In this document: positions 7,471 through 59,000 of the stretch, in pieces
Layout: each line of letters opens with the position of its first letter
How positions within the stretch are numbered: the first letter of the stretch is position 1
NCBI GenBank assembly: GCA_905178155.1
Contig: CAJINV010000018.1
Location: forward strand, 972,609 to 1,036,608
DNA from: Amoebophrya sp. A120
Taxonomy: Eukaryota; Protista; Dinoflagellata
Length of the DNA: 64,000 nucleotides
Direction: 5' to 3'
The notes under the pieces: model-generated
Told to the model about the DNA's origin: nothing
Seen by the model: the letters and a program-made list of their open reading frames with translations, nothing else
Database searches by the model: none
Program-made: the position numbers and the translations under genes

Positions 7471-10400
7471 TTAAATATATTGCAATGCAAAATCAAAATA
7501 GAAGTTTAAGTAGATCACTGTAGGCGGAGCGAACTGCATAGACCCGATGGTCCGTCGCGGCGTCATATTCAATTCATTGTTTGTCTTTCCGACCCTAGTA
7601 TGGAACATTAGCAAAAAACTGTACCCCGGATCACGAATTTTGAAAAGCTTAGCCCCGTTCTGGCAGACCAAATCGACTTCTTGGGTGAATAGCTTCTGAT
7701 TGGGCGGACGAGACACGTGCGTGGAAATCCACACTTTACCGTTCGAATCTAAGTTATACTCGACGCTCTGCCCGGCACGCAAGACTGGAAATTCCACCCA
7801 CCGCACTGCCTGTGTTCCCGGCAGGACTGCGGCAGGACTGGGAATTGCATGTGCTGCAGGGCGCTGCTGCTGAGGTCCCCGACCGAAAATGTTCAACTGC
7901 ACCTGTACGTTTGGGCTTGGCATCAAGGAGGCGAGGGCTTGCATCGGGGTAGCCAGGTGCTTCTCCACATCCGAATCCCGATGCCAGCGGAGCTCCCGGA
8001 ACAAAACATCGTCGTAGCGGATGGTTCTGGTTGCGGCGCCAGTGCCCTTCAATAAAGTCAAGGACGACGCAAGGTTTTCCCACGCACCAGCATAAAGAGG
8101 CGAAGAAAACACGAACAACCCGAGAGCATTTTCTCCAGTGTTCTTGTGCTCGGCGCGAAATGCGATTTCGTCTTGTTTCATCGGCTGGTGACTCCGGACA
8201 TAGAAGTCGAGATTGTTTTTTTGAAGCCAGGAATTTACGTCGTTGGCAAAAGGCCCAAACATGTCGCCACAGCGGGACCAATGTCCGGCCGGCGCGGGAT
8301 CTGCCCACATGAGCACATTGAAACATTTTGGAGTTGGAGGTTGAAGGGGATTGTGGTCATGATATGGCGCGACACAGTCCCACACTCCGTTCTGGGTCGG
8401 TGTCGTTTTAAAGAAGTGGGGCTCAATGATGAAAGAAGCGCCCGGCTTTGCACATTGCGCATTTTGAAGCTTCTCGGAGCACAGCTCTTGATGTGGCCGC
8501 TTTTCCGCCGGCGCCAGCCACAATGGTCCACGCAGCAAGTTTATCTTGGAAAGCTCAGATGTGCTTAGCAGGATCGGTGAGAAGCCAGCATGGATCAGCA
8601 GAGTCTTGCCGTAAACAATCGCGGCCTGCGGTAGCAATGGAAAAACCGTTGCGAAGGCAAAGCCGTGCCAGGAGTAATATCGGGTCTCCACAGTGCCGAC
8701 AGCCTTGACCACAGTTTGTCTTGTTGAGAGGAGGTTGACACTCTCTCGATCGTTTTCGTTGTACATCGTACTGACCCCAAAAGTTTCGTGATTTCCCCGG
8801 AGAAGCGTCACTTTGCTCGGAAACTCTGCTCCTGCTTCCGTGCAAAATCTTGAGTCAAACTTGCTCATGCATGTGTTCACTCCGCAGAGGCGGGCTGTAC
8901 GTCACCGCGGAAACTAGGCAGCGCGTCGCGGCGCTTTTTTTCAACGGGAGCGACTAGCACGGCTCGCTAGGCTTCTGCCCCCACATCTCTTTTGGCCGTC
9001 GCCACCTCGAAAACGAACACGAGAGGTTTCCGCTATTTGGATCTCGATGTGATGAAGCACAGAGCCTTTTAAAGCTGAACATTAGGTCAGATGCTGTTGT
9101 TAGGCGCGCCAGGCGCAGGCACTGGCACATGCCGCGCTGGTCTACCCAAAAATAAACATCCTGGGCGCTGACGCGTAAAAAGCGAAAATGGTAGGCGATC
9201 GCGCATCTTCCGCCCATGATCTACTTTGCGATTGCGACAACATATATTATAAATAAATATAAATATTATGCTCACACAATGCATGATTTTTTGACTCAGT
9301 TCTTTGCTTGAATACTGCAACCACAGCACGTACAGAAGCGTGTTGTAGCTGTCGCCTGTTAGGGGGGCACGGTCCATGAAATCTCCAAGAAAAACGATGC
9401 GACCCTCCACCTTGTCTCCCCAAAAATTTCCAGGAGCTGCGTTCGGTTCGCCGGGCACCGGCAGGAACGCCATCGCGAGAAGCAAATCCGGAAAGGCACC
9501 GTGCAAGTCCCCAAAAACGTGCACGAATTCACAGTTTTTTTGGTTCTGGGGAATTCGCTTCAGTTTGGACGACGAGCCAGGCACGCCGCAAATGTTTTCC
9601 AGCAGCGGCAGGTGAAGCGATTGTCCGTTTCCGTCGGGGCAGAAATGCTTTCCAAATTGCTGTGCTTTTCCCGTCAGAAACGCAGTGTACTGCTCGGAAA
9701 TTTTGAACGCGATTCCGGGGTCTTGCAATATTTTCCGGGTCTGGCCGGCGTCTTTGAAAGCACGCGCTGGGTGGAGATAATACCAGGGCAGGTGTTCCGA
9801 TTTCACCATTTCGATACCATCCGGGTGTGGTAGTTGAAGTTCAACTTGAGGTTGAGCGCCGACTTGCAGAAAATCAGACGCCGCGATCGACGGGCCAAAA
9901 GCCCCAATCTCCGAGGACGACGGCGAGAGCTGCTCCGTGACATTCCCCAGGTGGAGCTGCGTATCCACGGGAAATACGTCTGGTGTTCTCCTGGAAGAGT
10001 GCAAACTTGTGATGCGTCGTCCCGTGGGTCATGCAAAAATCTGCCTTGCAGGTAGACAGCAAAATACAGCGGCCTACTTTTGGTCGAGCTGAAGAGGGGA
10101 CGCTTGGTCTCATGCTCCTGGATGGATTGATCATTACGCTGTGAAAACTCTACCGTCTCCATGGTGTCGGGTCCTGCATAGGTATGACACGCGCTGCAGT
10201 CATCCCCAAGCGTAGCACGAAAAGCTTCAGGACCAAGAACCTCCATAGCCAACTACATCTTCCAGGAGGCCCAGACATGATGATGTAAATCTATTCGAGG
10301 TAGTCCCCTTAGATTATCCTCTTCCGTCCTCTAAGTCTCATGATTGCTTGGATTGGTAGTCTTTCGTTGTTGTTGTTTGTTTGAAAGGAGAGCGCTGAAG

Positions 10401-15400: not shown

Positions 15401-18400
15401 GTACGAGTACGATACTATTGCACGGGATACAGAAGATGAATTGCTGCATATCGTACGAAAAAAGTGTTCCACTGTAAGGATTTTGCAGGCTCTTGCATCA
15501 CAAGTTTGTTCTACATGACGGGGGATATTTGCCATGCAAGGTTCCTAAGAGAAAACAGAGCTAAAAATCTACTGTCTTGCATGTGTAGCAACACAAACAC
15601 TTCTGCGATGCATTTTCTGCATCACAAGTTTACAGTGGAACAGTTTTTGCTTGCGATACTGCAGATCGTCGTCCAGCGCCAGCTATCCAGTGCAAACATG
15701 TCTGGATCTGAAAAAGAGCAGACACTTGTCATGCGGGCTTTGCATCCGAAAGAAGGTCTGCAATGCATGCAAAGCATGACAAATTCTGCGAACGCCTCTC
15801 GTCCATGTCTAGTCTGCATGAGAAATCATGCCCGGTCCTTGACCCAAGAATCTGACCTCTTTTGCTGACAACTATCTATGCAACACAGATAATTTTTGTT
15901 TATCTTTTTTTATTCGAGAATCCGCATCCTAAGTGGCCACCTTTCAGACATGACCCAGGGTGGAAATTTGCAATGCATATCGGTTAAAAAACCCCGCTTG
16001 ATGGTCGTTTTGGAAGTTCTGCCGGCAGCCAGGAACCTGCATTTTCACGTGGTCGAAGGTCGCCAGGGACCGCTCCTTGCGGAGGAAGAGCGGGTTCTTG
16101 TGCAGATGTGGTGGAGCAGGTACGACAACTTGGACGTCTCCGGCGTTTTTAGTACGACAATTTGACATTGACGGTGGCTGAGTACAACTAGAGGCTTCAA
16201 ATTTCTTCTCATCCTGTAGTTGCACCTCCATCTTCATCATCCTCGCCGGCGGCCGAGCAGAAGTCCCCTCCACCGCGGATGAACCACCCGTGGTTGGACG
16301 AACGGGCTGCACAGCGGCGCAGTTTGAGGTCCGTGCGAAGGTATCCAAGAAAAAAACTGTGCTAGTGTAACTTTCTTTGGCTGACAGCATCACAAGTTTG
16401 CTCTACATGACAGAGAAAACCTGTCATGCGTGGCTTGTAAGGGAAAACACACATGAAAAGAGGACTTCATGGTTGTCTGGCATGACAGGCGTAACTCTGT
16501 TGCATGTTCTGCATTACAGAGTTACACTTACACAGTTTTTTTCTTGCATAGAAGGGGGAGAAGTTGTAGTCGTTCGAGTTTGATGCCGCGGTGCCGCGCG
16601 CTCAGTATGGAAGCGTCAGGTTTGAAATCGTCAAACTTGAAATAGTTTGTGATGCATAAAATGCAACCCACAAAGTGCCTGTCTTGCAGAGTAGGCAAGG
16701 GAGGCAGATGGTAAGCCTGTCGAGGGGTAGAAATAGTAATAGAGCTGTTAAAGTAGCATGACAAAAGGTGCCTTCCTTACCCAAACAGCATATACAAACT
16801 GGATCTCGGTTCTACCCAAATTTGTCATGCGCCGCTTGAAAAATAGACACCAACTGGTATCCGTTTTATGCATTGCAAATTATTTCAACTTTGACGATTT
16901 CAATCCTTTCGCTTCCATACGCCGCTCCGGACCGGTATAGTCGCTGACGACGAGGAATTATGCGGGGGCTGGAGAGTTAGGCGGCTCGGCTCGCTCGCTA
17001 TCGCACCGGACGCGAGGGTGGTAGAAGAAGTTGCCGCGGATATTGCAAGGAAAAATCCCCCCTCCCCATATCGAAAAAGTACGTCTCAGAAAATTTGCAG
17101 TGCTGATTTGTGACCACAAATCGGCTCTGTCTTGCAAGAACGCAACCCCATAGGCCGCGTCGCATACTGCAGGCGGTTTATGATGCTGTTGGCCCTACAG
17201 CTTAGGCGTTTGCCATGCTCAGCGCCTAGCCCAAAGCCTCTCTAGTACTCAGGCTAAGTATAGTAGCCTGTAGCCCTCTCCAGCAAGACCAATCTGATTT
17301 GTGTACGTGAAAAATCCAGCATTAGAAACTTCGTTTTGATATGGAGAGGGGGGATTTTTCCTTTTGATAGCGGAGCTGCAGTGGGGGTGTTGTTGTACTT
17401 CTAGAGGCGCGGCCATGGGAGGTCCTCGTTGCTTGTTTTGTTGAACCGCAACCATGCGTGGCGCGACCAGGACGGCGCGGGGGTCTTGTTGAAGAAGATG
17501 GGGGGCACACTGGATCGTGCTTGCTGTGCTGGAAGGTGGACGACCTTTTTTTGTGCGTATTTTCTTTGTTTTTTCCTCATGTTCTTCCTGTTTCATATTC
17601 ATGATGATCTGCGATCGTTGGATAAAAAATACAGCGCATCATGAAGGAAATCATCCGCAATTGAAAGAACCAACAGAGACAAAGATACCTGCACCTATTT
17701 CCGGACCAGCACCGCGAGGAGTAATTTTCGTTCTCGCGCCAGCAGTGGACGCGAGCACGAGATTTTTGCCACTACTACAGGAGCTTTGGTGACTACCACC
17801 ATCTGAAGGACCTGCTCGCTGTTGTTCCACATGATCGACCGTACTGCTACAACCCCCATTGTAAACTGCCGGACTGTAGCTGTTCCTGGGTGGACCTACC
17901 AAAGAGCAGCCAACCAGCGGCCCGGAGCTGCAGCGACCCAGGGGCGTCGCAGCTGCGGGAATGATGCTACTCGGGGAGGGACTGGTTACTGTGAAAGAGA
18001 TCATTTGAAAAAGGTTTGATTTTTGTAGTAAGTACTTTTGCACCAGAATAAAGAATGTAACCATCAACTTTTCTTTATGCATGGTACTCTGTCACACAGC
18101 GGAGCAATAGCAATCTTGTTCTTCCCTACAATAGTACACGTCGTAGGAAGAAAACAAGATCGCGACCACTTATACCTAAGTTCACCGCACTTCCTCTTCT
18201 AGAAGAGCCAGATCTTTGCGTTGCACTGACGGGCTGGAAAGCGGCGCGCAGGTTTGGCGTCCATAGCGTTGGCTTCGTCAGCGAGGTCGTGGGCGTTGTG
18301 GCGAGCAGTTTGGGCTGCACACCTGCTACAGGCACGGTTCCGCCGCCCGCGCTGCCCCCATTTTTTCCCGTTGCTGCTTCTGTCGACGGACCAGCACGAT

Positions 18401-21400
18401 CCGCTCGTCCACTGCACCCTGAACTAAGAGGTTGCCGCTGTGCACCGCTGCCAGGCAGTTGTCCTGGTTTCAAAAGTACCCCGCCAGCATGCTCGTCCTG
18501 GTAAAACCCTCCTCCAACGAGGTGGTTTGCGGTGGGTGGGTGAGTGTTGGCTCCACCGCGGTAGAAATTTGTTGCGCAGCGCGCAGAGGAGGATGACGCG
18601 CTGGAGGAGCTAGAGGTGGCTCCAGACGACGTTGCAAGACCACTATTAAAACCTCCTGCTGTGCTGTAGTTGTATCCGACACGATGCGCAGTCCCCGCAG
18701 TGGACGATGGCTCCGCACCACCAGTGCAGCTCACCACGCAGGGGTAGGTACCTCGCGTATGGGAGTGTCAGGATTGAAATCGACAAAGTTTGTAATGCAT
18801 AAAATCGAGGATACCAGTTGGAAGCCCAATTTGAATTTCTAAGCGGTGCATGACAAATTTCGGCACCTTCTAAATCCAGTTTGTCATGCCGTTTAGGGAC
18901 AGAAGCCGTCTTCTGTCATGCTACTTGAGAAGCTCTATCGCAGACCCCAAACAGGCTGACCGTCGGCCTCACTTGCCATCCCAGCAAGAGAGAAAGCGCA
19001 CGCCTTGCAATTCATGCATGAGAAATTATTTCAACTTTGTCGATTTCAATCCTGACGCTTCCATATCGCGGCGTCCGAATGTAGAGCGCACCGTTGGAGG
19101 CAGGAAGGAGTATCCTATGTAAAAACATCCCCACCCCAGCGTTGTCATGCAGATTTGCAATGACAAGAACATTTGTGATGCGCATCCCGATGATGGGCAT
19201 TTCCAGTCGTGTTTTGGAATTTGTAATGCTGTAAGCAGGATACGCATCTCGATTTGTAATCCGGCTGTCCTTGCTAACCTGCACGACACTACGGGCTGCA
19301 ACTTGTCATGCGTGGCGTCCAAAACTCCAGGATCTGTGTTGCAGAGATCCCAATTTAACTATGGGGCGGGGACATTTTCACACAGGATAAGAAGTGTGTT
19401 GTAGTTTGCGCTGGTGGTAGTCGTGTGCGAGGAGGAAACAACCTGATATTGTTCGCAGTTGTTCATGTTTGAATTGTTCACCTGTATCACAAGTCGCTGG
19501 TCGCGCAGCAGCCTCGCGTTTTCGTTCGCAAGTTCGCGGTTTTCTCGTTCGAGCTGCGTCAACTTTTCTTCCAACTTGTCGCGATTGATTCTTTCATGTG
19601 TGCTTGTTTTTGCCACTACAGAAGATGAAGAGCAGGAGCCTGCGTCTGCTACAATCTTGCCTGTGGTCGAAGAGGAATTGTTCTTACTTCCGGGACAACC
19701 GACCTCCAAATCCTGCTGCTCACGCCCGCCGGTAGTGTTCTTCCTGGCGGACAAGAACGCATGATCTTCGCCGGCCTCCCCGGTTCTTGGCGCGGCCCCG
19801 GCGATCTCGCGCAGATTTTCCGCGAGCGCACTGTCCTCCTCTTCGTTTGCGGCTTCGTGCAGAAACGTTTTCAGCCGGCGGTTGAGCTGCTCCACCATAT
19901 TGATGACATCCGGACTGGTAGGCTCGGGTGGGACGGTGATACTGCATGAAGATCCTGGAAGATGTGATTGTGCAGGTCCACGCCCACCTCCGTATCCCAC
20001 GAAAAAAGTGTTACAGTTACACATTTGTAGTCAATTCAGCAACACAAATTTCTCTGCATGAGAGAGAAAACTTGTAATGCAGAAATCCTACGGGAAAACA
20101 CGTATGAAACGAGGCTCCTATGCATATCCGGCATGACAGAGCTTGTCTGTCTTGCTTGGCCTGCAACACAATGTGTAACTGTAACACTTTTTTCTTGCGA
20201 TACTCCGCCGGAGCAGTCTACGAGCGTCGCGCCGGCACAGCTCCTGCTGCTGCAAGCCGTGGCGTAGTTGTGGCAGCTGTTAATGTTATTCATCCGCAGC
20301 GTAGTACTACTACACAACGTATTCGTAGATAAGGCGAAGGCGGCACCCTGCTGCACAGCCGTGTTTCTCGGCGCCACGGGGATGCGGCCCTGCTCTGCTT
20401 CCGGTGGGTCTTCACAAGAACGACCCGAGCCGCTGGTCAGGATACTACTCGTAGATATCCGCCTATCACAAAAAAAAACTGTTTCACTGTGAACTTGTGA
20501 TGCAGAAAGTGCATCACTGAAGTGTTTGTATTGCTACACATGCGAGACAAATGATTTTTAGCGGTGTTTTCCCTTAGGATCCTTGCATGGCAAGTTTTCT
20601 TTGTGATGTGTAGCGAACTTGTAATGCAAAACTTGCAAAATCCTTACAGTGAAACAGTTTTTTCTTACGATACCGCCCGAGCAGACCTGCGGTCGTGCCA
20701 TCGTCATTCGGACTGCTCCTCGCGCCGTCCAGGCCTAATTTTTAGTATGTGGTTGAGTTTTGTACTGATTTCGTTTCTTTTCTTAGGGTTTCTCAGGCTA
20801 ACAGAGAACGAAAATAAATACGAAATGGAAATAAACCCACAAAATGTATATATGAAGATTATATTCATCCGTGTTTTATTTAAACAAACTCACCGGCCAG
20901 CGCAACGGCTTCGGCTTGATGGTCATGATCCCCGAGAATAACTCCTTCTCCGCCCGCGAAGTCCGACGAGCGCCCGGGCCTGGAACATGATCTGCGATCG
21001 CTGCCGCGAATTATCCTATGTAAAAACGTCCCCACCCCATAGTCAAGATGGGGAATCGGCAAGACAAATCCAAAAGTTTTGGCTGTTTCGCATGACAAAT
21101 TTAGACTCGTAGTGTAGTGCTGTTTGAGGTAGTTCAGCAGCATAAGAGACCTAGTATATCATGCTGATTGCAGCATGACAAATTCCAAAACACGATCAGA
21201 AAATGCTCCTCATGGGGCTCCGCATGACAAACACTTTCAGTTTCAGTCGCATATCGATAGGCTGCAAGCGTTGCTTGTGGTTTAGGCTAGCGCTCAAGGC
21301 TCCGAGGAAAAGCTTTTTCGTGCTCAAGTAAAAAACTCAACTGGAACAACACACACCTGGAACGATAGAAGAAGTGTGTTCATGTTTTGTAATTACAACT

Positions 21401-22568: not shown

Positions 22569-25049
22569 ATTTTCTACTTCGTAACGGGAGGCCGAGGAGT
22601 GACTACACCTTCCGAGGAGGAGGAGGAGGAGGAAACCTCTATAGTAAGCTTCTATCTACTAAGCTACTTCTTTCTTAAGCTTAACTATAGGACATATTTT
22701 TGGTGCCGACAAGCCGAGCGGATAGTAGATCTGTAAAAGTGGACAAATAGCCCTTCCGGGTGTGCATAACCTAGGACTTCAGTGCCACTCGTTGTCTTCC
22801 TTCTACCGCTCAAGGCCCGACACCGAGTCTGTACTGCGATCACCCCATTCGACCCAGCTGCTGCGTGCTCAGTGGCTCTCTGGACCTGTTAAGGGACTGG
22901 GCTCGGGGACTGGAGTTTTTTGGGTTTGTGGCGCTGGAGCGACAACAGGGTCGAGACCGAAGCCCGTAACCAGAGTGCCCAGACGCCACGCCTGTTCGAC
23001 GAGAGGAAGTGAGCCACTACTGTGTCGAATGGTTGTGAGGGCGAAGCAACAGAGTTACCTGTCGGCTGAAGCCCGCAGTGGAGGACTCCCAATCCCTCCA
23101 CCGTCTACATGAAGTAGTGCAGCATGATGATATTATAAAAACGTCGCCCGCTCCGACGTAGTACAGATAGCTCCCCCGTCGTCGATCCTCGGTTGACTCT
23201 CCCCCGTCGTTGGCGGAAGTCCTTCTGTCGCGCGTGTAGGCGCGTCCACGTCCGACGTCGTTAAGAGGGGCGCTGTTCTCGAGCACGCTGGCTGTGCTGA
23301 TGCACAAAGAAAGATAGCATGGGTGGAGTCAAAGGAATAACCAGGGGAACGACAAAAGATCGATAAGGACAAGCCCCCGGGTTCCTCTCACTGACATGTC
23401 CTGCGCCCTCGTCCATAAGAAAAACGCAGGCCCTTGTCGCGTCGCTCGATCACGGCACGAAGGTCACGACCACGGCGGGCGCGGGTGGAGTGTATAAGCT
23501 AGTCTATGCGCTATTTCTCTATTGCCCGGCTTCTATACTTTCTTTTTTACTCTTAAGCTATTGCTATCCGAGGCCTTCTATCTAACTCCACGACGGGGCT
23601 ACGCGGTTACCCGTGCTGCGGCGGCGCTGTCAGTGAGAGGGACGACGTCATTATTTTGTTTATACTCTGGACCGATGTCGTTCGTTCCTAAAGGGACGAG
23701 GCTCGCTGGGGCCCCCTGCAGCATCCAGGGACCCTCTCGAGGCCCCTCGCCCCCACGGTTTTTGGTTGATTTTCAAGTAGTATCCGTTCTCATCGACGAC
23801 GAAGAACAACGACGAAGAACAAAAATGAATGATGCGTCAGGGCGTATTAGCGTGATCTGATTATCAAATCAGATAGGGACAATGCACCCAGGAGTAAAGT
23901 TTTTCTAATATCCAGGAGTAAAGTTTTGACTCGGAGAAAATGCGCTTCAATTGCTGGTGATGCTCATACAAATATCATGCTTGTCGTAGACCATGTCCCT
24001 GCAAGCAAACTGACCTCGACAGGGAAAAAGAAACCAGCATACCTGAAACAGGTACGGGCGTTCCCCGCATGTCGCTTACGAGCCAAAGAAAGCTACGAGC
24101 TAAAGAAAGCACCGACAAAATCTATAATTGCTGCGGCATATTATCTTGACCGGAGTTTCGGACGCCAATTTTCTACTTCGTAACGGGAGGCCGAGGAGTG
24201 ACTACACCTTCCGAGAAAAGAAAAAACTTGGAAGGTGATCTACCTCTCCCTCCGCACGTCGCCGCGCAAGATTGCGGAGCGAGATCCGGAGGCAGAAAAG
24301 ACGGGCGCCCTGTCACTTGCCCCAAGTAACTTGCAGGGCCAGGTAGGTTGTCTGGGCACGATGTGGGCGAACATACCGGCCCGGAACAGCTCCACACTTT
24401 CAGCCACAAAAAGGAGGGCAAAGCGAAAACAAAAACTTATTTTATTAGCTCGGGGGAAGCTCCCGAAAAAAGTAAGTCTTTGCTTCGATTGCGGTAGGCC
24501 TTCTCGGAGCAAAACCCTGACCAAAACCCTGCCGCTTTGGCGGCAGCCATCACAGGGGCAAGCATCTCTTTGGCTGGCCAGGATGGCGATCTATCTCTGC
24601 CTCCGGACGTTGTCCAGCAAGATTGCGGAACGAGATCCGGAGGCAGAAAAGCCGGGCAGCCTGCTCCGCGTACCAAGTAACGCGCGAGGCGAGGCGGCTT
24701 GCCTGGCGTAGATGCCAGCCTAGATCTCGAGGGAAATGCTGACCCCCAAATCAGCCAGCGTGCGCTCGTCAGAATTGTGGCGACACCTCGCACAAAATCT
24801 GGATCGGCATCAAGGTAGAAGGGCCTTCAGCTCTGAAGGCCCGGCGGCTTTGGTTTTGCCAGCCAGACGAAATACGAACCAAGGCACCACCTGGACAACT
24901 GCCGGGCGGTGCGAAGAGGGACAAAGGCGGGGGCTGCGAAATCTATGAAACCACGAACCAAAACCCTGATGTAAAACTTAATTTTTTCAACCCTTAACTT
25001 CGTAACGGGAGGCCGAGGAGTGACTACACCTTCCGAGAAAAGAAAAAAC
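22569..25049. repeat. Three exact copies of a 41-bp core (within 22569-22616, 24168-24215 and 24997-25037) plus a diverged ~130-bp duplication (24236-24350 vs 24588-24700)
   Basis: ACTTCGTAACGGGAGGCCGAGGAGTGACTACACCTTCCGAG occurs three times; GCAAGATTGCGGA.CGAGATCCGGAGGCAGAAAAG occurs twice. Confidence 0.9.
22635..23600 (+). mobile_element. Possible non-autonomous LTR-retrotransposon remnant
   Basis: ...GGACA-TATTTT-TGGTGCCGAC (PBS-like, 22701) and G-rich GGCGGGCGCGGGTGGAG directly before TGTATAAG (23491); only patchy similarity between the putative LTRs. Confidence 0.3.
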
Positions 25050-29800: not shown

Positions 29801-32800
29801 AAATCACGTACACAGTTGAGAATATAACGTTTAGAAATCCCATATCCATCACCTCGGCCTTGTAAATCTGCTCGAAAGACGGATAGAAGTTTTTATCGGA
29901 GTTGATGTTCTTTGCAATTTTCTGACGCGCGTCCACGTGGACGTGCGCGTGCTTGAGAACGTCGGCGTACCTCTCTCGGTGAACCCTATGACAGTACACA
30001 ACTCCCCCTCCCCCTCATTTGTAATGCAAAATCCCAAACCCAGTTGCTTCGCTTCCTTGTAGCACTCTTTGCATGACAGATTCTGGAAGCCCACGCAGTA
30101 CGATAGTCGGCGCATGAACTTGTCATGCGTCGGCTCCACGTGTCTTGGTGTTTGAATTGCTGTTCATGCCATACAAATGAGGGGGAGGGGGACGAGTTGT
30201 GCACTCTCATAAAAACCGTGCTCCGCATACAATTCCGCCCGCCGCCGCACCGCGGGATACAGTTGCGCTTCGTGCTGTTCCGCTTCGGCACTCACCTCCT
30301 GGCCCGGGAAAAAGCTTGCCAACCAACTCTGCTCCAGGATGCCCACTTGAGCATTCGTGGAAGACGAGGAGAGAAGGGGCTTCACGACACTGGTAGAAGA
30401 AGGACTCGACGTTCTTGCAGCGCTCCTGTCGCTGATGTCCCCGGGAGCTTCTACAGAAGTCCGGCTCATTTGTTCTTCCCTTTCCTTCTCCTCAGGCTGG
30501 TGTGGTGTCGTCTTCACGTTTTCTACGAGCCAGTCGAGGGGAAACGCGGCCCAGCTCTCCTTGGCGAAGGCATTGAACGGAAAGGCCAGCATATGCAGGA
30601 TAAAACTGTGCTTTAGTGTAAGAACTCTTTATAATTTGGAGAAAGAACAGCATGACCACAGGAAATCTGTCTAACACAACAGTTGTCATGCGTAGGCAGT
30701 ACGTGAAAGAACGCGAATGAAGCTTCTAGCCTGTGACGCATTTTTAGCATGACAAGTGTAACTGTTTTGCATTTTCTGAATGACAGACTATACACTTACA
30801 CACTTTTTTTCTTGCATACAGCATCTCCTGTAAGTCGTGTTGGTGGACCAGGTTATCCATCTCGTCCTCGCTCGGGGTTGAAGATGTCCCAGCCGAAGTC
30901 GTAGGCTCTATCCTGATTAAAAACGTCCCCACACCAGAGTCAAGATGGGAAATCTGCTAGACAAATCAACCAGCTTTGGTTGCTTTGCATGATAAGTTTG
31001 TCCTCGTAGTGTAGTCCTGTTTTAGGTAGGTCAGCAGCATCACAGATCTAGCATATAATGCTGATTTATATTTATCACAAATTCCAAAACACGAACAGAA
31101 AATGCTTCTCATAGAGCTCCGCATGAGAAACTTTCTTGGCATGCAGAATTGCATGACAACTCTGGGGAGGTGGGGATGTTTTTACTCAGAATAGGTTCGT
31201 GTTCCGCTTCATCCGCCGGAGCAGAACTACTACCACTACTGCTATCATTCACCGTCCAGGACGAGGTCGCTCTACTACTTTTTGCAGATGAAGCAGCTCC
31301 TCCACTGGCAGTACTGGATACAACATCCTCGTCCACAGGGATGAAATTAGCATCCGCATCGTCTCCTGCACGATCACCATCAAGTTGTAGATCTACTCCT
31401 CGCGACCGTGGCTCTTCGTCTTTGTGGCAAAATTGCCCCCGCGCGGGTATGATCGCAGGGAGGTCCGCGTCCTCGATATCGTCTCCGTCCCAGAAGGGAT
31501 GTTGCACTGTGGTCGTTTGTTCCAGGTGCTCGCCGTGGTAGACGTCCTCGTCTTCATTGTTGTCTTGCAGTACGGCGGCATGATCCTTCAACATTCCGCT
31601 TGTACTAGTTCTTGGTTTATTTGTCTTCTCGTCCTGTTCAGATGACGAAGCGACTTTGTAGTTTACAGTGGTGTTTAATATTTCGTCCTCCGCCAAACCA
31701 AGTCCTGACCTCACCACCCGCTTCAGTTCGCCGTACAAGTAGCCGAGCACGGAGGTGGAAGCCTCTGAGTCAATATCGCGATCGTCTAGAGATCCGATCA
31801 ATACCGCGTGGTTATTGGGCTGGCGATGTTGCCGGACTTTTTGCTTCTCTTCCTTATCTCCTGCTTGCAACGGACGTGGTCGTGGTGGGGAGCTAGTTGT
31901 ACCTTCTAGCGAGTAGAACTCGTTCCGTCCTCGCGTGTCGTGCTGCCGCTGCGACCCAGCATCTTCTTCTAGCGGCGGGGGGAGCTGCACCTCCTCCGAA
32001 GTTGTTGCACTTCTATCTTCACTGGTGAATCCACCTACTTCGACGTCGTCGTAATAGTCGAACTCAAAATCATCGGGAGTGTTTACAACAGCCCCGGAGC
32101 TGAACGCTTTAAAGCTCCTCTTGTGGCGGTTCTGTAAAGCGCCTTTCTTGATGAGAGGCAGGTCCTCGTGGTTATCCGTCCGGAGGTCGAAGTTGATCTT
32201 TCGGATGATGCGCTCCTGCATGTGCAGATAGAAGGCGCGCACCTGGTCCGGATTTGCGTACTCGTCAAAAAACTCCGGGCTGTGGTTGGGGGCGGGAACG
32301 TGGTCGGAGAAGTGTTGCTCGTATCGCAGCAGGAGGCTCAGGTAGTCGGCCTCGTTGACCACCTATCCCACGAAAAAAGTGTTACAGTTACACATTTGTT
32401 GGAGTTGCTGCATCACAAAGTTGCTCGACATGCCAAAGCAAACCTGTGATGCGCAGACTATAAGGGAAAACACGAATGAAATGAGGCTGCCAAGCATTTC
32501 CTGCATGGCAAAGGTTGCCTGCCTTGCTTGTTTCGCAACACAATGTGTAACTGTAACACTTTTTTCTTCGCATACCACCTTCTTCAGGAACCGCTGCGGG
32601 TTTTCCGGGTCCTGCCCGTCCCGGGTCAGTATGGCGTTCTCAAACGTTACAGTCTCAACTGTTACATGAATTTGTAATGCTAAACCGACCGAAACCACTA
32701 CACAACCTGTAAGGGCACCTCACCGCAGATGGTTCGGCCACCAGGTCGTGGAGTCAGGCGGACCGAAGCCATCACCATCATCCTCGGGCACATATATAAT

Positions 32801-35800
32801 CCTACTTACGCCACCTCCTTATCCTTACTTTCGCAAACAGTCCAACTTATCGCCAACATGCGCTTAACGTTCGCCAACGGTCCATACTTGTCGCCAACAG
32901 AGCACGTCTAACTTTTTTTTTTCAGGCTCCCGCACCCCCTCGGGCTAGTAGGTACGTGGTCCCAAAAACATATAACGTGTCCCCATGCAACTCCGTGCAA
33001 GAGGCGACTTTCCGATTCTGCATGCAAAACAGAGCTCCATATCGGAAAGCCAGGGCACACATACAAACTACCTTCGGATCGGCTGAAGAAACTAGAGATA
33101 GGAGGGATGCGGGCCTCCGAAACAAATAAATAACTATCTGTTCTTTTTGATCAGGCGACACAGTGAAGGTATGAATGAAGGCGCGCAAATCAAAACTCGC
33201 ATGACAGAATAGGTGTCTGCCAGCGGGTAATGAACGAGCAGCCAAAAAGAAGTGCGTCAAAGCTCATCATGGAGTAAACCGCAGCGAAATAAAAAGACTA
33301 CGCGCTACCGACCGGAAGAGTCGCCGCATACAAATATAAAAATAGGGATAAGCTTCGATCCCGGCCACCATACTAACACGCACAACGTGCTAGACGACAA
33401 AGGGGAAGACAAAGGTGGGAGCGCGAACCCAAAATAATTCTAGGTCGGTATAAACGCGGGAGCCATAGAGCAAGAGCTGTGGAGCCTAAGATAATGGACA
33501 TGGTTACCGGGAAGCGGGCCGGAGAGCAGAAGAGAAGTAAAGATCAAAGCCGGGGCGCGAGCCGGCATAACGTTCTTTTTTTTTCAGGCTCCCGCACCCC
33601 CTCGGGCTAGTAGGTGCGTGTTCTCGAAATCATACAACGTGTCCCCAGACCACACGGATCAGAGGCGGTTTTCCGATTTTGCATGCGAAACAGTGCTCGA
33701 TATCGAAAAACCAGAGCGCACACACAAAGAAACTACCTTCGGATCGGCTGAAGAAACTAGAGCTAGGAGGGAAGCGGGCCTCCGAAACAAGTAAATATGT
33801 AATTGGTATATTTCAGGCGACGGCGAGGATGTAAAGTTGCAACTATGCACGCGTCAAAATCCACATGGCAACGAGTCACCAGCGAGTAATGCACTAGCAG
33901 CAAGAAATGTCACCTCTAAGGCTCATCATGAAGTAGGTAAGACGCGGCGGACAAATAGGTAAGACGATGCGACGCCGACCAAGATGCAAGTCGCCACATA
34001 CAAGCAAGAAAATAAGCATGCATAAGCCTCGATCCCGGCCTGTGTAACCACGCGCCAAACGCATGGATACGGCTGAGGGGAGGACAAAGATGGGGACGCG
34101 AACCCAAAATAAGTCTACGTCGGCAGTCGCAGGGGCCATAAATGCGGTGGGTGTGGAACCACAAGGAGATAAAAAAACAGAGACAGATACCGGGAAGCGG
34201 GCCGGATGAGACAGATCAAGACAGAATCGTAGCCGGGGCGCGAGCCGGCATAGAGAACTAAAAAAATAATAAACAGAAATACATGCGCAGATGGAGTTAC
34301 TCATATCGTTTTTCATGTAAATAATAGACATCTAGTATAGCACGACGCAGTGGGCACATAGGTTACGATACAAACACAAACGGCAAGATAGTCCACACAA
34401 AGAACGCGAGCAGGGGAGCGAGCCTGCAGCGAGAGTAAATAGCCATCTGGGGGGTCGGCCAAGGACCCAGGTGCTAAGCACCATAAAGCCGAAGTATAAA
34501 AACCGCAGTAGATGAGAGGTTAACATCAGACAAGTCAAATTCTAAATTTAGTTTTTTCTATTTCCAGAGTCAAAGTATAAATTTTGACTAGAACCCTAAA
34601 TCCCTAAAAACCCTGAAACCCATCGCCACTGCGTTCCGGGGCGGTAGGCGGGAAGAAGATGTTCGTCGCTGGAGCTGTGGGTGGTCGGGACAGCGGCTGC
34701 GGCGGACGACATATGATGGTCCTATATCTAAACCTAAACCTAGACCGATGTGTCCGGATGGGGACACGCAAAGAGAAAAACTGCTTGGCGCCAGTTGGGC
34801 CCGGGGGAAAGGAAAAAAGGGGGGCAGCAGAGTAAGCGAATTATGAAGCCATTTGGAAAAAAGCGCTATCAAAAAGCCTTGTGCTCTGATCCGTCCGGGC
34901 GTGCACTCCCATCTGGTTCTAAAGCTTCAGCAGTGCTGAGAGCGCTCCGACCCTAAACCTCGAGACGGATGTCAAGAGATCTACGTACGTATGCGCACGA
35001 GCAAGGCAGGAACTGCGTCTGATGTGGACGCATTCCTTACTAAAACAAAAAAGCGACTCTCATTCCGGAGGTACACCTCAACGGAGGGCCAATTTGCGAA
35101 GCGAAAATCGATCCTCACTCGAGATCGAAAGCGAAAGCGATGTCGGGCGAGAAGATCTCAGGACAGAAGCGAGCAACTCGATCTCGCGGGGCGGACTGTC
35201 GAAGAGCGAACAAAATACAAAATCGAACGAAACCGATTAACGAAGTCCTACCTCGAGTCCCTCGTAGCTCGAGAAGCGAATCGAGTACAAGGAAACTCAT
35301 CATGTCAGGATGCTCTAGTGCTCAAAGTATAAATTTAAAACTTTCAGTCCTTACACACGCCAAGTGAAGGAAGCCGGTCTGTGTGTGGGGGGCGGGTCGG
35401 TTGAGCCCCAGGCTCGGACAATGCGGCTGAAATCTACTGCCTGGTGATCTGATCGCCGCCGGCGGAGTACTGAAGATTGGCACTCTGGTGCTCGAGAACG
35501 TTCAGGCCCAATATCGTATCATCGGTGTCGTATCCATCTCGATTGAGCGGCACCACGCGGAGGAAATTCGTTCAGCAGCCACATGTCGAATCCAGTTGTA
35601 GGAGGAAGGTCGCAATCACGGCACTACCCGGAGACTGTATGGGAACTAAAAAACAGAGCGAACGCATGCAAAATGAAGTAGTTTGTCATGCATGTCGGAG
35701 CGGAAACTAATTAATGAGGACGAGACAACAGATAAAGTCACGAAGCGACAGCAACCCAGAAAACTCACCCACCATAGTAGTGTGGCGAGCAAGCCAAGAT

Positions 35801-37713
35801 CCAACTTACATGAATTTGTAATGCAAGACTAGCACAGGCGAGAGAGAGAACCTTGCGCGTCTTGCATTACAGGTTTGGTGCGGATTACAGTGCTATTTAG
35901 CCATCCGGGAATTTGTCATGCGAAGCAGCTCGATCGTCTGGCGGGTCATGGTTATTTTGCATGACAAATCGTGTAACAGTTGAGAATGTAACGTTTGAGA
36001 ACCCCATAGTCAGCATGCGGAGCTTGGGCAGGCTGCCCTCGCGCCACAAGATTTCCACGTTATGAATTGCAAAAGTATCGCATTCGCACTCGTAGAAACG
36101 CATCACAAATTTCCTCCGCATGAGATTTGTAATGCTGATTTACCTTAAGAAAAAGATTTGTATATGCATCCTTGCAATACGAATACGATACTTTTGCACA
36201 GGATACACGTGCCGCTTGTACTCCTCCGAAATCCCATTCGCGTACCCGGTGACCCGAGTGGCCTTGTCCGCCGGCAGCGTGAGGTTGTTCCAAGAGTCGT
36301 ATTGGGCGGTCAGTGCCATCTATCCCACGAAAAAACTGTTTCACTGTGATGATTTTGCAAGATCTGCATCACAAGTTTGTTACACATGACACAGAAGATT
36401 TGCCATGCGCGCTTTCCAAGGGAAAACACGCTGAAAAATCCTATGCCTTGCAGGTGTAGCAAGACAACTAGTTCTGTGTTCTATTCTATGCATCACAAGT
36501 TCACAGTGAAACAGTTTTTTCTTGCGATACCATCTCCCGGGCGATGTCGTCCTCGCTCATCAGCCCGAGCTCCTCTAGGCTGGGATACACGAAGTTTTTC
36601 GGCCCGAATCGGTCAAGATAGAAGAAATCTACTTCGCTTGTTCTTCTTCTTACACTCTCTTCGTCGTCGTGGTCCTCCACTGGAGAGGAGGACGAGGTTG
36701 CATCTCCTTCTTGAGCAGCAACATCGAAGGCGTGGACGTATTCGTCGTGTTTTTTCTTTTCTGCATCAGCGCTGGTCGTTGCAGCAGTGCTTGATGTTCT
36801 TGTTTTCGGGGTAGTTCTTGTAATATTTAATGGGGCAGCAGGAGCTTCTGAAGAAGACTTCTCATCATGATGCGCATCTAGTACAACTTTGACATCATTT
36901 TCTTGCACTTCTTCATCTTCAGATGAAAGCAATCCGGCTTCTTCCTCGGCCTGTTCGCGGAGCTTTTCCAAAACCTCCATGGTGTTGGCACGGCTCAGGT
37001 CTGGCGTATCAGTGCCAGGGCTAGAATTTTCAAAGTACTCCTGCTGCAACAGTTGCTTCAATTCGTCGAAAGATGTTTTTGTTGTTGTTGTGTCTCTTAC
37101 AACATTTTCGTTCTGGTTCACCTCTCGCAGCTTAATACTTCCGGTCGTGGTGCTCGTCGTGCTATCGTCGTGATCGCTTTCATAGACTTCCTGTTGTTCT
37201 TCATCATGATCTGGTAACAGCTCCTCGTCAATATCTTCTCCCTCCTCGCTGTCAGAAACTATCTTACTTCGTCGGAATTTCCTGTCAATTTCTGCGGGCT
37301 CGTAAAAGTAGGAAAGGCGGAAACGGGGCTGCCACACTTGTCGCCCCTCGTGCCTGTAGCCGTATAGCATGGGTTCCACTATAAAATCACCACGCACTCG
37401 CTTGCTGTCGTCGAGCGAAATGCCGGGCGGTAACATGGTATCGCACGGAAACGCTGCTTCATGTGCTCTGATGAGATTTTGCATGCTTTGCATCGCAAAT
37501 TTGCTCTACATGACGAAGAATTTTTTTGCCATGCGTACTATTCACTAGAAGTGGATGAAAGCACAGCCAAATAAATAAACGCATTGCCTTGTATGTGTAG
37601 CAAGACAAACAAATCTGCGCTGCATCGTGATCTCCATCCGCATGACGAGTTTAGTACAGTGAAACAGTTTCATTCTTGTGATACCCGGCAGGCTGGCTGT
37701 ACTGCTTGTTCAG
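26837..37713 (-). CDS. Hypothetical protein (>=1,584 codons), acidic and Q-rich segments; 5' exon not located
   Basis: Removing 13 introners (including the 3.4-kb one) plus one TSD each gives 4,752 nt of open frame, from an AG acceptor at 37714-37715 to TGA at 26837-26839. Confidence 0.75.
26863..27114. mobile_element. Introner family A, 252 bp
   Basis: Family A TIRs, right end GTA; TSD gagct. Confidence 0.93.
27178..27326. mobile_element. Introner family C, 149 bp
   Basis: Family C TIRs; TSD ggagt. Confidence 0.95.
27906..28099. mobile_element. Introner family F, 194 bp (degenerate left end, TGT)
   Basis: Family F right TIR intact; TSD tcacg/ccacg. Confidence 0.85.
28176..28467. mobile_element. 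Introner family B, 292 bp
   Basis: Family B TIRs; TSD cctcc. Confidence 0.93.
29598..29844. mobile_element. Introner family H, 247 bp
   Basis: TIR TATGG(C/G)GTTCTCAAACGTTACA.TCTCAACTGT; TSD tccat. Confidence 0.93.
29987..30211. mobile_element. Introner family J, 225 bp
   Basis: TIR TATGA.AGT.CACAACTC..CCCCTCCCC.TCATTTGTA; flanks aaccc/aaaac; frame restored. Confidence 0.85.
30592..30818. mobile_element. Introner family F, 227 bp
   Basis: Family F TIRs; TSD cagca. Confidence 0.9.
30909..31193. mobile_element. Introner family B, 285 bp
   Basis: Family B TIRs; TSD ggctc/ggttc. Confidence 0.92.
32364..32574. mobile_element. Introner family D, 211 bp
   Basis: Family D TIRs; TSD ccacc. Confidence 0.95.
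32681..35805. mobile_element. Nested 3,125-bp insertion, probably a non-autonomous non-LTR-type retroelement
   Basis: Flanked by a perfect 19-bp duplication TTACATGAATTTGTAATGC (32662-32680 and 35806-35824); no TIRs and no long ORF. The class assignment is inference. Confidence 0.8.
32913..34252 (-). repeat. Two diverged tandem ~660-bp modules, each ending in oligo(A) on the minus strand
   Basis: T-run + CAGGCTCCCGCACCCCCTCGGGCTAGTAGGT at 32913 and 33576; GCCGGGGCGCGAGCCGGCATA ending at 33569 and 34252; collinear conserved blocks in between. Confidence 0.9.
36061..36205. mobile_element. Introner family C, 145 bp
   Basis: Family C TIRs, reverse orientation to 1574-1727; TSD cacgt. Confidence 0.95.
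36321..36529. mobile_element. Introner family E, 209 bp
   Basis: Family E TIRs; TSD ccatc. Confidence 0.95.
37439..37683. mobile_element. Degenerate introner family E, 245 bp
   Basis: Right end ACAGTGAAACAGTTT..TTCTTGTGATA; eroded left TIR; flanks catgg/cccgg. Confidence 0.72.
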
Positions 37714-56000: not shown

Positions 56001-59000
56001 TAGCGGCCCCTGCATGATGGTACAACTATCGGTGTCAACAGGTTCTACACTTGAAGCTGCTGCAGCCGTACAACCTCCTGGAGCAACTCCTGCGACACTG
56101 CTTTGTTCAGCATCAGCTCCCTCCCCCTGCTGAGTAATGAAATTGCTCGTCTCGCCGCTTGGAACAGATTGTTGTACAACTGCTCCACCTATTTGTTCGC
56201 TCGTCGGCTGCTGCTCGTCCTCGGGGTCCTTTTGCGAAACAACAAGCTCTTGCAGTTGCTGCGAGAGCTGCCCCGGCGCCATTGTGTTCAGCTGCTGGTA
56301 GAAGGTTGTCGGCTGGTCACTAGTGTTACTAGTACTTCCTGCACTCGCAGCACCACCTGCGCTCTGTTCAGGCGTTGAACCATTGCCTCCTCCTTGCACG
56401 ACCTGGCTGCTGGAATTCATGTCCTGCTGCTGCTGCTGTCCACTCGCAACAATGTTCGAGCCGTCCCTGAATATTTTACATTTAGTGTATATTTAGATTC
56501 TTCGTAATCCCACCAGTTCAAATCCTAGCACAGAAGTGTTGTATAGTTAGTAACCAGGAAAGCAAATGAAGACAAGCTGATGCACAAGCGAAGCGCATGA
56601 AAATCTTACTTCGTACTAGCCAAACAACAAGATGAAGAACGACCGCACATTCATCATCATACAACAAGAAATTGCCGAAAAAGTAAAGTCTCAATCTCGA
56701 TATAGTACTTTCCGAATATGGGGGGGCTCATCGTCGGTACAGGTGGGATGGGGACCCACCTCATATTGGACGGAAAATTGCTCGGTGGCCCGCTGGACGA
56801 AGCATTGTTTAGCATCATCGCGCCGGAGGAAGCAGCGATGCTATTTTCGGAGCTGGAATCCGAGCACGCGGCCGTGCTGGTGCATTCCTTCTCAGCTTGC
56901 TGCTTACTCATCGCGGTGGCCCCCGCGATCATGTCGGTAGGCACTACCGATTCGGCCGCCGCGTGGGCGACCTCCAGTATCTCGATGGAAGAAGGTGGAA
57001 CCGCTCCCGCTGCAGCGATGTCCTGCTCAATAGCTGGTGGAGCTCCTGCTGCTGTCTCTGCTGCTGCATTCTGAGCCGAGACAGCGGAGTTGCTTGCGCC
57101 AGCGCGTGTCGGGAGGCCGCCTGGTTGGCTGTGAAGATGTTGATCCTCTTGCAGTTTTTGCACCTGGTCAGCAGGAACACCAGGTCCACCCCCGCTCGGT
57201 GCTTGTACAACAGCTCCTGCATGATTTCCAGCGGCGCTATTGTTCACACTCACCTGCTTCGGCTCCAGAACCGCTGCACTGGTTGTACTAGAAGTTGTAC
57301 AACACTCGGGCGGCACGTTGCCCGCATTGGCAAACAGCTTTGGTGGCGGACAGCTGGGCACTAGGGGGATTAAAGTCTGATTTTGGGCTTTCTGGTGGAA
57401 GGGAATCGTCGGGCCGCCCCTTTGGTGATTTGGTGGATTGTTGTTTAGAGCTTCAACACCCGCTAGCATGAGTAGCGGTGAATCTTTAGTGAATTTTGCA
57501 TGACAAGTTGCAGAGCAGACTGCAGATGCGTTGTCCCTCTTGGTCTTCTGGGGAGTAGGTTCTGCACGCTGCGCCAGAATGAAGTCGCGGCTCATGCGGC
57601 GGGCAGCTAGAAATAGCCTGGGCGTTGTTCCCATTTTGCGCCTCCCCGTGCTTGCATCAGAGCACTACAGCAGCCGTGGCAAAGCACCAAAAAGAAAGGC
57701 GGCGAAACGCATGCAACTACGCAAAAAGGCGCGAGAGCAAGGGCGAAAGGACCAGGCCGAGAGCTTTGACGCGTCTATCCGGCAGGCGCGTGAACTCTCC
57801 AGGCCTAGGCCTTTTCGGCAGAATATAGACGGGCTGAGGGCAGCCGAGGGCGCCTGTCTTTTCCTTCCGGCACCACTTCCAAGGGCCTACCTGTGCACTT
57901 TTTTGAGCACTTTTCTGCGCTAAAGTTTGCTTATCACGGTCGAAAAGGGGGGCCCGGTGAGTTTTGGGGTGAATTTTGAAAAAACCGTGGGTGAATTTTG
58001 GCCCGAGGTGCCTATTCAAAATTCGCTAACGCACGAGAAACTAATTCACCAAGAGAATTCCTGACCTTGGGGTCACGTCGGAAAGGCCTCGCTCCGGAGG
58101 CAAAAACACGCCTGGGGAGTTGGGAGCAGAGCACAGCAGGCGAAGCAAGCTACCGTCCGCGGCCGAGTCGGGCCTTCCCTTCCACTCGAGGCTACTCTCA
58201 GATATCCAATTCCAAACCGCAACTCGCGAGAGCGTACGCGTTGTACTACTAGTGCTCCTGTGTTCAGGCGTCGCCCTCCCTTTCGACAATTCCGGAGAGG
58301 AACTTCTCAGGCAGACGCGCAGAAGAGTAAGAGCCACCCGATCCACCTTCTTTGGTTACATACGCACTACACAGCCCGGCGAGCGAGCCCCCGCAAGACC
58401 ACTTCTTTCGGTCCTGCAAGCGCCACCACGCGACGAGCAGCCCTTCACGCTATGCGGGATGCTTGGGCTCGTGTGTCTAATACCTAGCGCCCTTCTCTTT
58501 TAAGTACTTAAATGCAAGTCATGCAATACAAATTCACTGCAAATTCACCCTTCTGTACGCTAACGACCGTCCAAGGCATAAACTGTTGTGCGTCGGGCCG
58601 CCCCTTTGGTGATTTGGTGGATTGTTGTGCTGCACCGTTTGCCCCCGCGGCTGCACGAGAACCCCAGGAGGGGGATGCAGTGCGGGCGGCGGGCCGTCTG
58701 GCACGACCGCCGTGCTCGCGCTCTGTTGTACTATGTTTGGTGGCGGCGAGGACGGCACGACAGGTTTTTTTGTCGCGGAGGTCGTGGTTGTACTACCAGT
58801 AGACTTGCTAGCATTAACGTCCGGGTTGTAGTTGTTGTAGCTAGGTACTGAATTAGTAATGTTAGTAGACGTGGTTGATGTTGTGGTGTAAGTATTATTT
58901 GTCGCGGATTTAATATTTTGCCCTCCTGTAGAAGTTCCTCCCGCGCCACTCGCAGACTTTGCAGAGGCGCTGTTAGGTAAAGGAATGAGCTCCATCTGGT

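Follow-up and report, generated by a model that had tools for sequence, protein, structure and literature searches.

A probable non-autonomous retroposon nested at a common box inside an introner of Amoebophrya sp. A120

The insert described here is 3,125 nt and is nested inside an introner, a mobile non-canonical intron, in a 64,000-nt stretch of DNA from Amoebophrya sp. A120 (contig CAJINV010000018.1, positions 972,609–1,036,608). The whole stretch is referred to as the window, and positions are counted from its first letter. The insert is probably a non-autonomous retroposon that was copied in by the enzyme of a sequence-specific long interspersed nuclear element (LINE), at a spot where the enlarged intron is likely still spliced out. 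The evidence consists of a long target site duplication (TSD), a junction at the same base in two loci, agreement of the TSDs (19 and 18 bp) with the host sequence around each, one common end that carries unrelated bodies, no open reading frame (ORF) with a family match, and a contig, likely of RNA, that is without the composite.

The 19-bp sequence that borders the insert is present in exactly two copies in the window, and the match cannot be extended. The host introner is 235 nt without the insert and the composite is 3,379 nt, a 14.4-fold ratio. The rebuilt host has 74–80% identity to three full-length siblings in the window, and the alignment shows no gap at the insertion site. Its termini are TAT…ATA and the 5-bp repeat GTCAG is exact at both borders. 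When the element and one 5-bp copy are removed, the frame …KLRMLTRDGQD… is open throughout a 1,537-nt model of the gene. The original prediction, made from the DNA letters, had described an exact long duplication with an introner motif around 32681–35805, a host that keeps both terminal inverted repeats (TIRs) and its GTCAG repeat, and a frame that is intact over the element; these descriptions are correct in each part.

The host has inverted ends starting with TAT (the definition in the available text of PMC7789003), a direct repeat of the 3–5-nt class at the exon borders (GTCAG), and membership in a repeated family with absence from transcripts (the siblings, and the spacing in the likely RNA contig below). 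It is like the Amoebophrya A120 introner elements in that text, which have inverted ends starting TAT, a short direct repeat, a length of ~240 nt, non-GT-AG borders and many families. The search for a gene name gave no Pfam match at curated cut-offs for three host exons and no usable ESM Atlas match for a host exon. A catalogue of introners in the window, built on 5-bp repeats, had 47 rows, from which four long cross-pairings were dropped to leave 43; a large insert is present in only one of them. The TGTVATGC motif is a box common to introners, with 116 of 155 sites inside the catalogued introners (16.6% of the window). An introner at 16606–16919, of the same family as 18758–19065, is absent from the catalogue.

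A second locus was found with a 27-letter pattern from the left end of the insert. The pattern matched one metagenome contig, termed L001, and had 0 matches in viral contigs and 0 in prokaryote genomes. L001 contains a 1,322-nt insert (positions 8706–10027) in an introner of the same family (8503–10078), with the 5-bp repeat GAGGG and an 18-bp duplication. The 3' junction is at the same base as in the window, 51 nt from the introner end. In terms of the family consensus, the arm that was hit is the left one in the window and the right one in L001, i.e., opposite arms; at both loci it is the arm at the 3' end of the intron and the insert is in gene sense, where the gene strand of L001 is taken from its open frame only. 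The two inserts have the tail in common (identities are given in Table 1), which reads …GGTTTA at its end in both, and there is no other blastn match below E 0.5 between the bodies except a tail-internal repeat. One base of the TSD differs between the 19-bp and 18-bp versions but is identical within each pair, which argues that the repeat was copied from the target and is not a core borne by the element. Positions 8927–8943 of L001, ~220 nt into its insert, may have a wider likeness to the dinoflagellate spliced leader. The segment ends in TCAAG, the last five letters of that leader as it stands in the available text of PMC7789003, and no such word is on the sense strand of the window insert.

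The common end is repeated in the genome. In the DNA contigs of run X1, 40 contigs align to 32666–32875. A 90-nt tail contig has a depth of 343 with 0 differences and a variant has 227, compared with a mean of 24 for eight single-copy pieces; very roughly, contig depth gives ~20 copies of the ~220-nt end. Among the termini of the insert, repetition is highest at the left end. Depth drops inward past 32800, and the far end is single-copy. Fifteen of the 40 contigs overrun the ends of the stretch, and the depth of 830 in the first bin against 97 in the last suggests that most overruns are on the target side. One X1 contig of 16,086 nt is single-copy, starts with a diverged tail and runs on for ~15.9 kb; it is a candidate long or autonomous relative.

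In at least six other contigs the motif is retained, and divergence sets in beyond it, at 32668–32670. The flank that diverges at 32670 matches the end of a different introner family, in register, with the box ending 50 nt from the terminus (26 of 30 letters; the best of 200 shuffles has 19). The 32669 flank weakly matches a third introner family (21 of 30, compared with 19 for shuffles). The 11-mer, with up to two mismatches allowed, precedes only 0.14% of window positions. No loose end lies directly behind 32680 among those listed (6 of 18), which indicates that empty introners are not being counted. Insertions on the motif comprise both full loci and at least six further contigs, and those off the motif at least one. 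The proposal that a second mobile sequence is aimed at introners gains from these data, i.e., from the shared junction base with different TSD lengths and from the motif-joined contigs that include another introner family. Introners may serve such a sequence as a safe harbour.

The original prediction also took the insert to be one second mobile element. The mobile end stands, but the 3.1-kb whole is a chimera, in which only the ~220-nt end is common with L001. Contig depth forms a mosaic, with approximately single-copy stretches at 35293–35805 and 34260–34443. The copy gradient, the A-runs and the folding together suggest a polarity in which the left end would be the 3' tail of a minus-strand RNA that is co-oriented with the host gene. 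The insert lacks inverted repeats and long direct repeats at its ends (8 of 40 end letters are complementary). The longest stop-free frame is 145 aa. Pfam shows no family at curated cut-offs for 14 insert ORFs, ESM Atlas gave only scores of 0.76 for a 130-aa antisense ORF, and Rfam gave only chance-level matches for the inserts, none below E 0.5.

The two tandem units fold on the minus strand with an energy of -157.6 compared with -110.2 ± 7.8 for column shuffles, and have 16 compensatory pairs compared with 8.4 ± 2.8; 0 of 24 shuffles reach either value. The test uses two sequences only, and the column-shuffle null does not keep dinucleotides and may overstate structure. Local folding in 120-nt segments over the insert gives z-scores no stronger than -2.5. 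The ~660-nt unit (32913–34252) resembles a structured, A-tailed RNA with blocks of 25–40 identical bases and has relatives elsewhere in the genome. The units show no match to hammerhead or hepatitis delta virus (HDV) ribozymes. A hairpin ribozyme match (E 1.4, antisense strand, unit 2 only) was rejected because unit 1 is without the second conserved strand, and the self-cleaving ribozyme in each tandem unit that defines a retrozyme was not found. A reading of T-tracts with CAG and GT words on the plus strand as mini-exons was dropped because the indels between units are non-triplet and the minus strand folds better. Three TTTAGGG words, which we take to be similar to a telomere repeat, are on the minus strand of the insert (34594–34608 and 34951–34957); the window has four CCCTAAA sites on the plus strand.

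The combination of a 3' junction that is fixed, a 5' junction that varies and a long TSD taken from the host, without terminal repeats, is what target-primed reverse transcription produces when the endonuclease is sequence-specific. The TSDs, read at two loci only, are long, variable and copied from the target, with no TIR or long terminal repeat (LTR), and the 3' end is conserved while the 5' end varies if the proposed polarity is correct. The view in the original prediction that the junctions are typical of target-primed insertion is in agreement with this. An autonomous LINE, with an ORF for reverse transcriptase (RT) and endonuclease, was not found. A strict short interspersed nuclear element (SINE) does not fit, in that there is no tRNA, 7SL, 5S or small nuclear RNA (snRNA) head and the bodies are 1.3 and 3.1 kb. 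According to the available text of PMC4494074, SINEs share 3' tails with a partner LINE, whose endonuclease sets the target; by this analogy, chimeric RNAs that bear the tail may be mobilised in trans.

The proposed steps are as follows. An RNA ending in the common tail would be bound in trans by the LINE protein. The endonuclease would nick just 3' of the box (A)ATTTGT(A/C)ATGC, which ends 50–51 nt inside the introner ends. The nick would prime reverse transcription, which would fix the 3' junction, and a looser second nick 18–19 nt away would produce the TSD. The bodies may differ by fusion of different RNAs upstream of the tail, through template switching or 5' transduction. Insertion at this point would duplicate the box and spare the last 51 nt of the introner, including the hairpin arm and the box, which would explain continued removal with the gene in frame.

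The same chemistry could operate in cis. The inserts would then represent 5'-truncated copies of autonomous LINEs that are target-specific and whose 3' untranslated regions are long and evolve fast, and the two bodies would belong to different subfamilies. The drop in copy number away from the tail and the 16-kb single-copy contig that begins with a diverged tail are consistent with this. It is nevertheless unlikely, given that the window and L001 bodies have nothing in common upstream of ~220 nt, that the window body is a patchwork of single- and multi-copy stretches with internal A-runs, that its 5' 500 nt have no relative at ≥88%, and that no ORF remnant is present in 3.1 kb.

Removal of the composite from the transcript is indicated by a 14,140-nt contig of run X3. 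This run is only guessed to be RNA; none of the matching runs listed is on record as RNA. The raw RNA runs X9 and X10 gave 2 and 0 matching reads and metagenome run X8 gave 0 contigs, a yield too low to bear on the matter. Three pieces of the window (36530–37000, 36206–36315 and 31500–32357) are found in the contig with 0 differences, at record positions 7689–9225. The span is 1,537 nt, which equals the model with four introners removed, each with one 5-bp copy, the composite included. The composite of 3,379 nt is thus likely still spliced out with the gene in frame, and the exactly expected spacing in this likely RNA contig favors the claim in the original prediction that removal tolerates a ~14-fold increase in size. 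On the strand of the gene the insert starts with GTAAGT (35805–35810) and ends with TTAG (32679–32684). GT and AG flank both inserts, window and L001, because the TSD supplies the GT and the tail plus target supply the AG. With any insertion at this site, a new AG arises 50 nt upstream of the introner end.

A different interpretation of these transcript data accepts the targeting but doubts that it is harmless. The spliced contig would come from insertion-free cells, and the allele with the insertion would be mis-spliced or would be removed in two steps, with the insert first excised as a GT-AG intron. The likely RNA run does not contain any listed piece of this exact insert body, and the GT and AG that bound both inserts fit a two-step removal. 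Against it, the exon pieces of the contig, with 0 differences over 1,439 letters, suggest that it is from the same strain; the exact empty-site joint 32680–35825 is not present among the 15 of 173 joints listed; and the AG of the tail has no pyrimidine tract. This interpretation, which is partly compatible with a retroposon in a still-spliced intron, has a rather small probability.

Integration at the DNA level is improbable. A circular or recombinase element (tyrosine recombinase, Crypton- or DIRS-like) that crosses over at the box, with the 19-bp repeat as its attachment core, would account for the fixed junction, the lack of poly(A) and TIRs, and the conserved box as target. The length of the duplication varies, however (19 and 18 bp), both copies agree with their own host sequence at the one base that distinguishes the loci, the bodies and 5' ends are unrelated, and no LTR or split repeats are present at the ends. 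Very improbable, and graded as already largely refuted, is the absence of any targeting, with insertions made anywhere and surviving only in introns, or with a single composite carried around the genome by the introner acting as a DNA transposon. Introners make up ~17% of the window, insertions in exons would be purged, and one contig has an off-motif flank; but survival does not predict the same base twice against a background of 0.14%, and hitchhiking does not predict bodies and TSD lengths that differ, the use of opposite arms of the host family, or a second host family. An assembly artefact has a negligible probability: no listed contig spans the whole insert and the assembly may itself derive from the X1 sample, but the six listed insert pieces from the short-read contigs of X1 have 0 differences, one of these contigs (543 nt, 35293–35835) crosses the right junction and continues 30 letters beyond (the bar for bridging was 31 letters), and the separately obtained L001 contig has the same architecture with a different body.

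Several points weigh against a non-autonomous retroposon aimed at a box in a still-spliced intron. Only two loci were seen in full, and L001 may be of the same strain, as a 22-nt X1 loose end matches it exactly. The flank evidence covers 6 of 18 loose-end rows and 8 of the 40 pieces, and the consensus of the 32668 flank is not above shuffles (19 compared with a maximum of 20). The 16,086-nt X1 contig matches the tail from exactly 32681 (16 differences in 97, 83%) with an unlike flank, which implies that targeting is not absolute or that relatives use other sites. Summed contig depth is 185–723 at 34628–35179 and 185–206 at 32788–33155 (~28 for single copy), and such a sum is not a copy number. 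No RT or endonuclease was found in either insert: Pfam shows 0 families at E ≤ 1 on six window-insert and three L001 read-through frames, and for this reason the enzyme and target-primed reverse transcription remain inferences. The insert has no poly(A) or simple-repeat 3' tail. Such tails are also absent from some LINE clades. In the spliced X3 contig, from a run guessed to be RNA, the presence of the middle 98 nt is deduced from coordinates, and that sample may be without the insertion.

Similar systems are known in animals. The SINEU-3 element of crocodilians, as described in the available text of PMC4494074, has 313 of 347 copies in Mariner-N4_AMi and a TSD of 16 nt. Like SINEU-3, the window insert is probably a non-autonomous retroposon that favors one site within a common non-autonomous DNA transposon, and it has a long TSD; in SINEU-3 also the independent copies argue against hitchhiking. 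SINEU has an snRNA head and poly(A), whereas the inserts described here lack poly(A) and any Rfam match, their bodies are kilobase chimeras, and the target is a non-canonical intron in coding exons. The insert is also like Tx1L of Xenopus laevis in Tx1D, a sequence-specific non-LTR integration into a DNA-transposon-like repeat that is called a harmless site in the available text of PMC1950540 and PMC6719617. Tx1L is autonomous with a characterised endonuclease, unlike the present insert, in which none was found, and Tx1D is not presented as an intron in those texts. The Tx1 clade is described as animal in the portion of PMC4494074 at hand. The window insert is not a member of SINEU-3 or Tx1L, having no snRNA head, no poly(A) and no ORF.

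The main text of PMC7789003 does not contain the word "nested", and the available text does not describe insertion into introners. A120 introners are attributed to non-LTR, LTR and TIR elements in the available text of PMC12130899; there the retroelement is the intron-forming unit, whereas in the window it would sit within a TIR introner. The Dataset S2 of that paper may include such composites as non-LTR introners. None of the papers listed in the literature searches, which covered titles and the starts of abstracts (supplements and subscription papers being outside the scope), describes retroelements that target introners. Retroelement targeting of DNA-transposon repeats is already known; the new part is a spliced-out non-canonical intron inside coding exons as the target. 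Safe-site targeting by retroelements, so far of rDNA, tRNA genes, telomeres and miniature inverted-repeat transposable elements (MITEs), would thereby also include spliced-out mobile introns in active genes. A further implication is a site-specific endonuclease, with a short and defined target, in a protist.

The available text of PMC7789003 treats the removal of the tens of thousands of non-GT-AG introns of Amoebophrya as an open question. An intron that has grown 14-fold with its terminal 51 nt spared, and whose exact removal likely persists, would mean that the ends carry the removal signal, and not the length or the interior. A broader model is possible, though doubtful. A portable 220-nt retro-tail may bring RNAs that are otherwise unrelated (structured-RNA dimers, leader-like transcripts) to the box near the terminus in many families of introners. 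These promoter-free sequences would be transcribed inside the host intron, where splicing would provide both a hiding place and the route to the next template; non-canonical introns would grow 14-fold with the protein untouched, and the terminal 51 nt would be the part read by the splicing machine.

Table 1. Positions in the window of the composite intron, its parts and the adjoining exons
Feature	Position	Strand	Basis
Host exon upstream of introner (…KLRMLT), including one 5-bp copy (36009–36013)	36009–36060	-	spacing in likely RNA contig
Composite non-canonical intron: 235-nt TAT…ATA introner, insert and extra 19-bp copy	32630–36008	.	missing from likely RNA contig
Introner inverted arm, 5' end of intron (gene sense)	35966–36008	.	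43 nt, 91% complementary
Introner inverted arm, 3' end of intron (gene sense), undamaged by insertion	32630–32672	.	
Introner 5-bp target duplication GTCAG; second copy 36009–36013	32625–32629	+	
19-bp target duplication, outer copy; ends in common box, 51 nt from introner end; putative first nick after 32680, + strand	32662–32680	+	
19-bp target duplication, inner copy; variable junction (18 bp in L001)	35806–35824	+	
Host exon downstream of introner (RDGQD…)	32575–32624	-	spacing in likely RNA contig
Non-coding chimeric insert, 3,125 nt; probable sense minus strand, co-oriented with host gene	32681–35805	-	
Multi-copy common end (putative 3' tail); no poly(A); degenerate ~21-nt repeats in upstream half	32681–32900	-	203/221 columns identical to L001, last 113 nt identical
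Tandem unit 1, ~660 nt; A10 at minus-strand end; predicted structured RNA	32913–33569	-	
Tandem unit 2, 72.6% identical to unit 1, non-triplet indels; A9 at minus-strand end	33576–34252	-	
Internal stretch with diverged relatives elsewhere in genome; three TTTAGGG words, minus strand	34590–35179	-	contig depth
Apparently single-copy stretch, putative 5' end	35293–35805	-	one unbranched 543-nt contig, bin depth 26–29

Other repeats are present in the window. Three exact copies of a 41–53-nt sequence are located at 22569–22616, 24168–24227 and 24997–25049, 1.6 and 0.8 kb apart, and Rfam gave no match at gathering level for this region. A diverged 126-nt repeat (24230–24355 and 24581–24706, 77% identity) is between the last two copies. 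The three copies possibly arose by insertions one after another at a different target, with very long duplications. An exact 38-nt direct repeat is found at 57407–57444 and 58591–58628, 1,184 nt apart.

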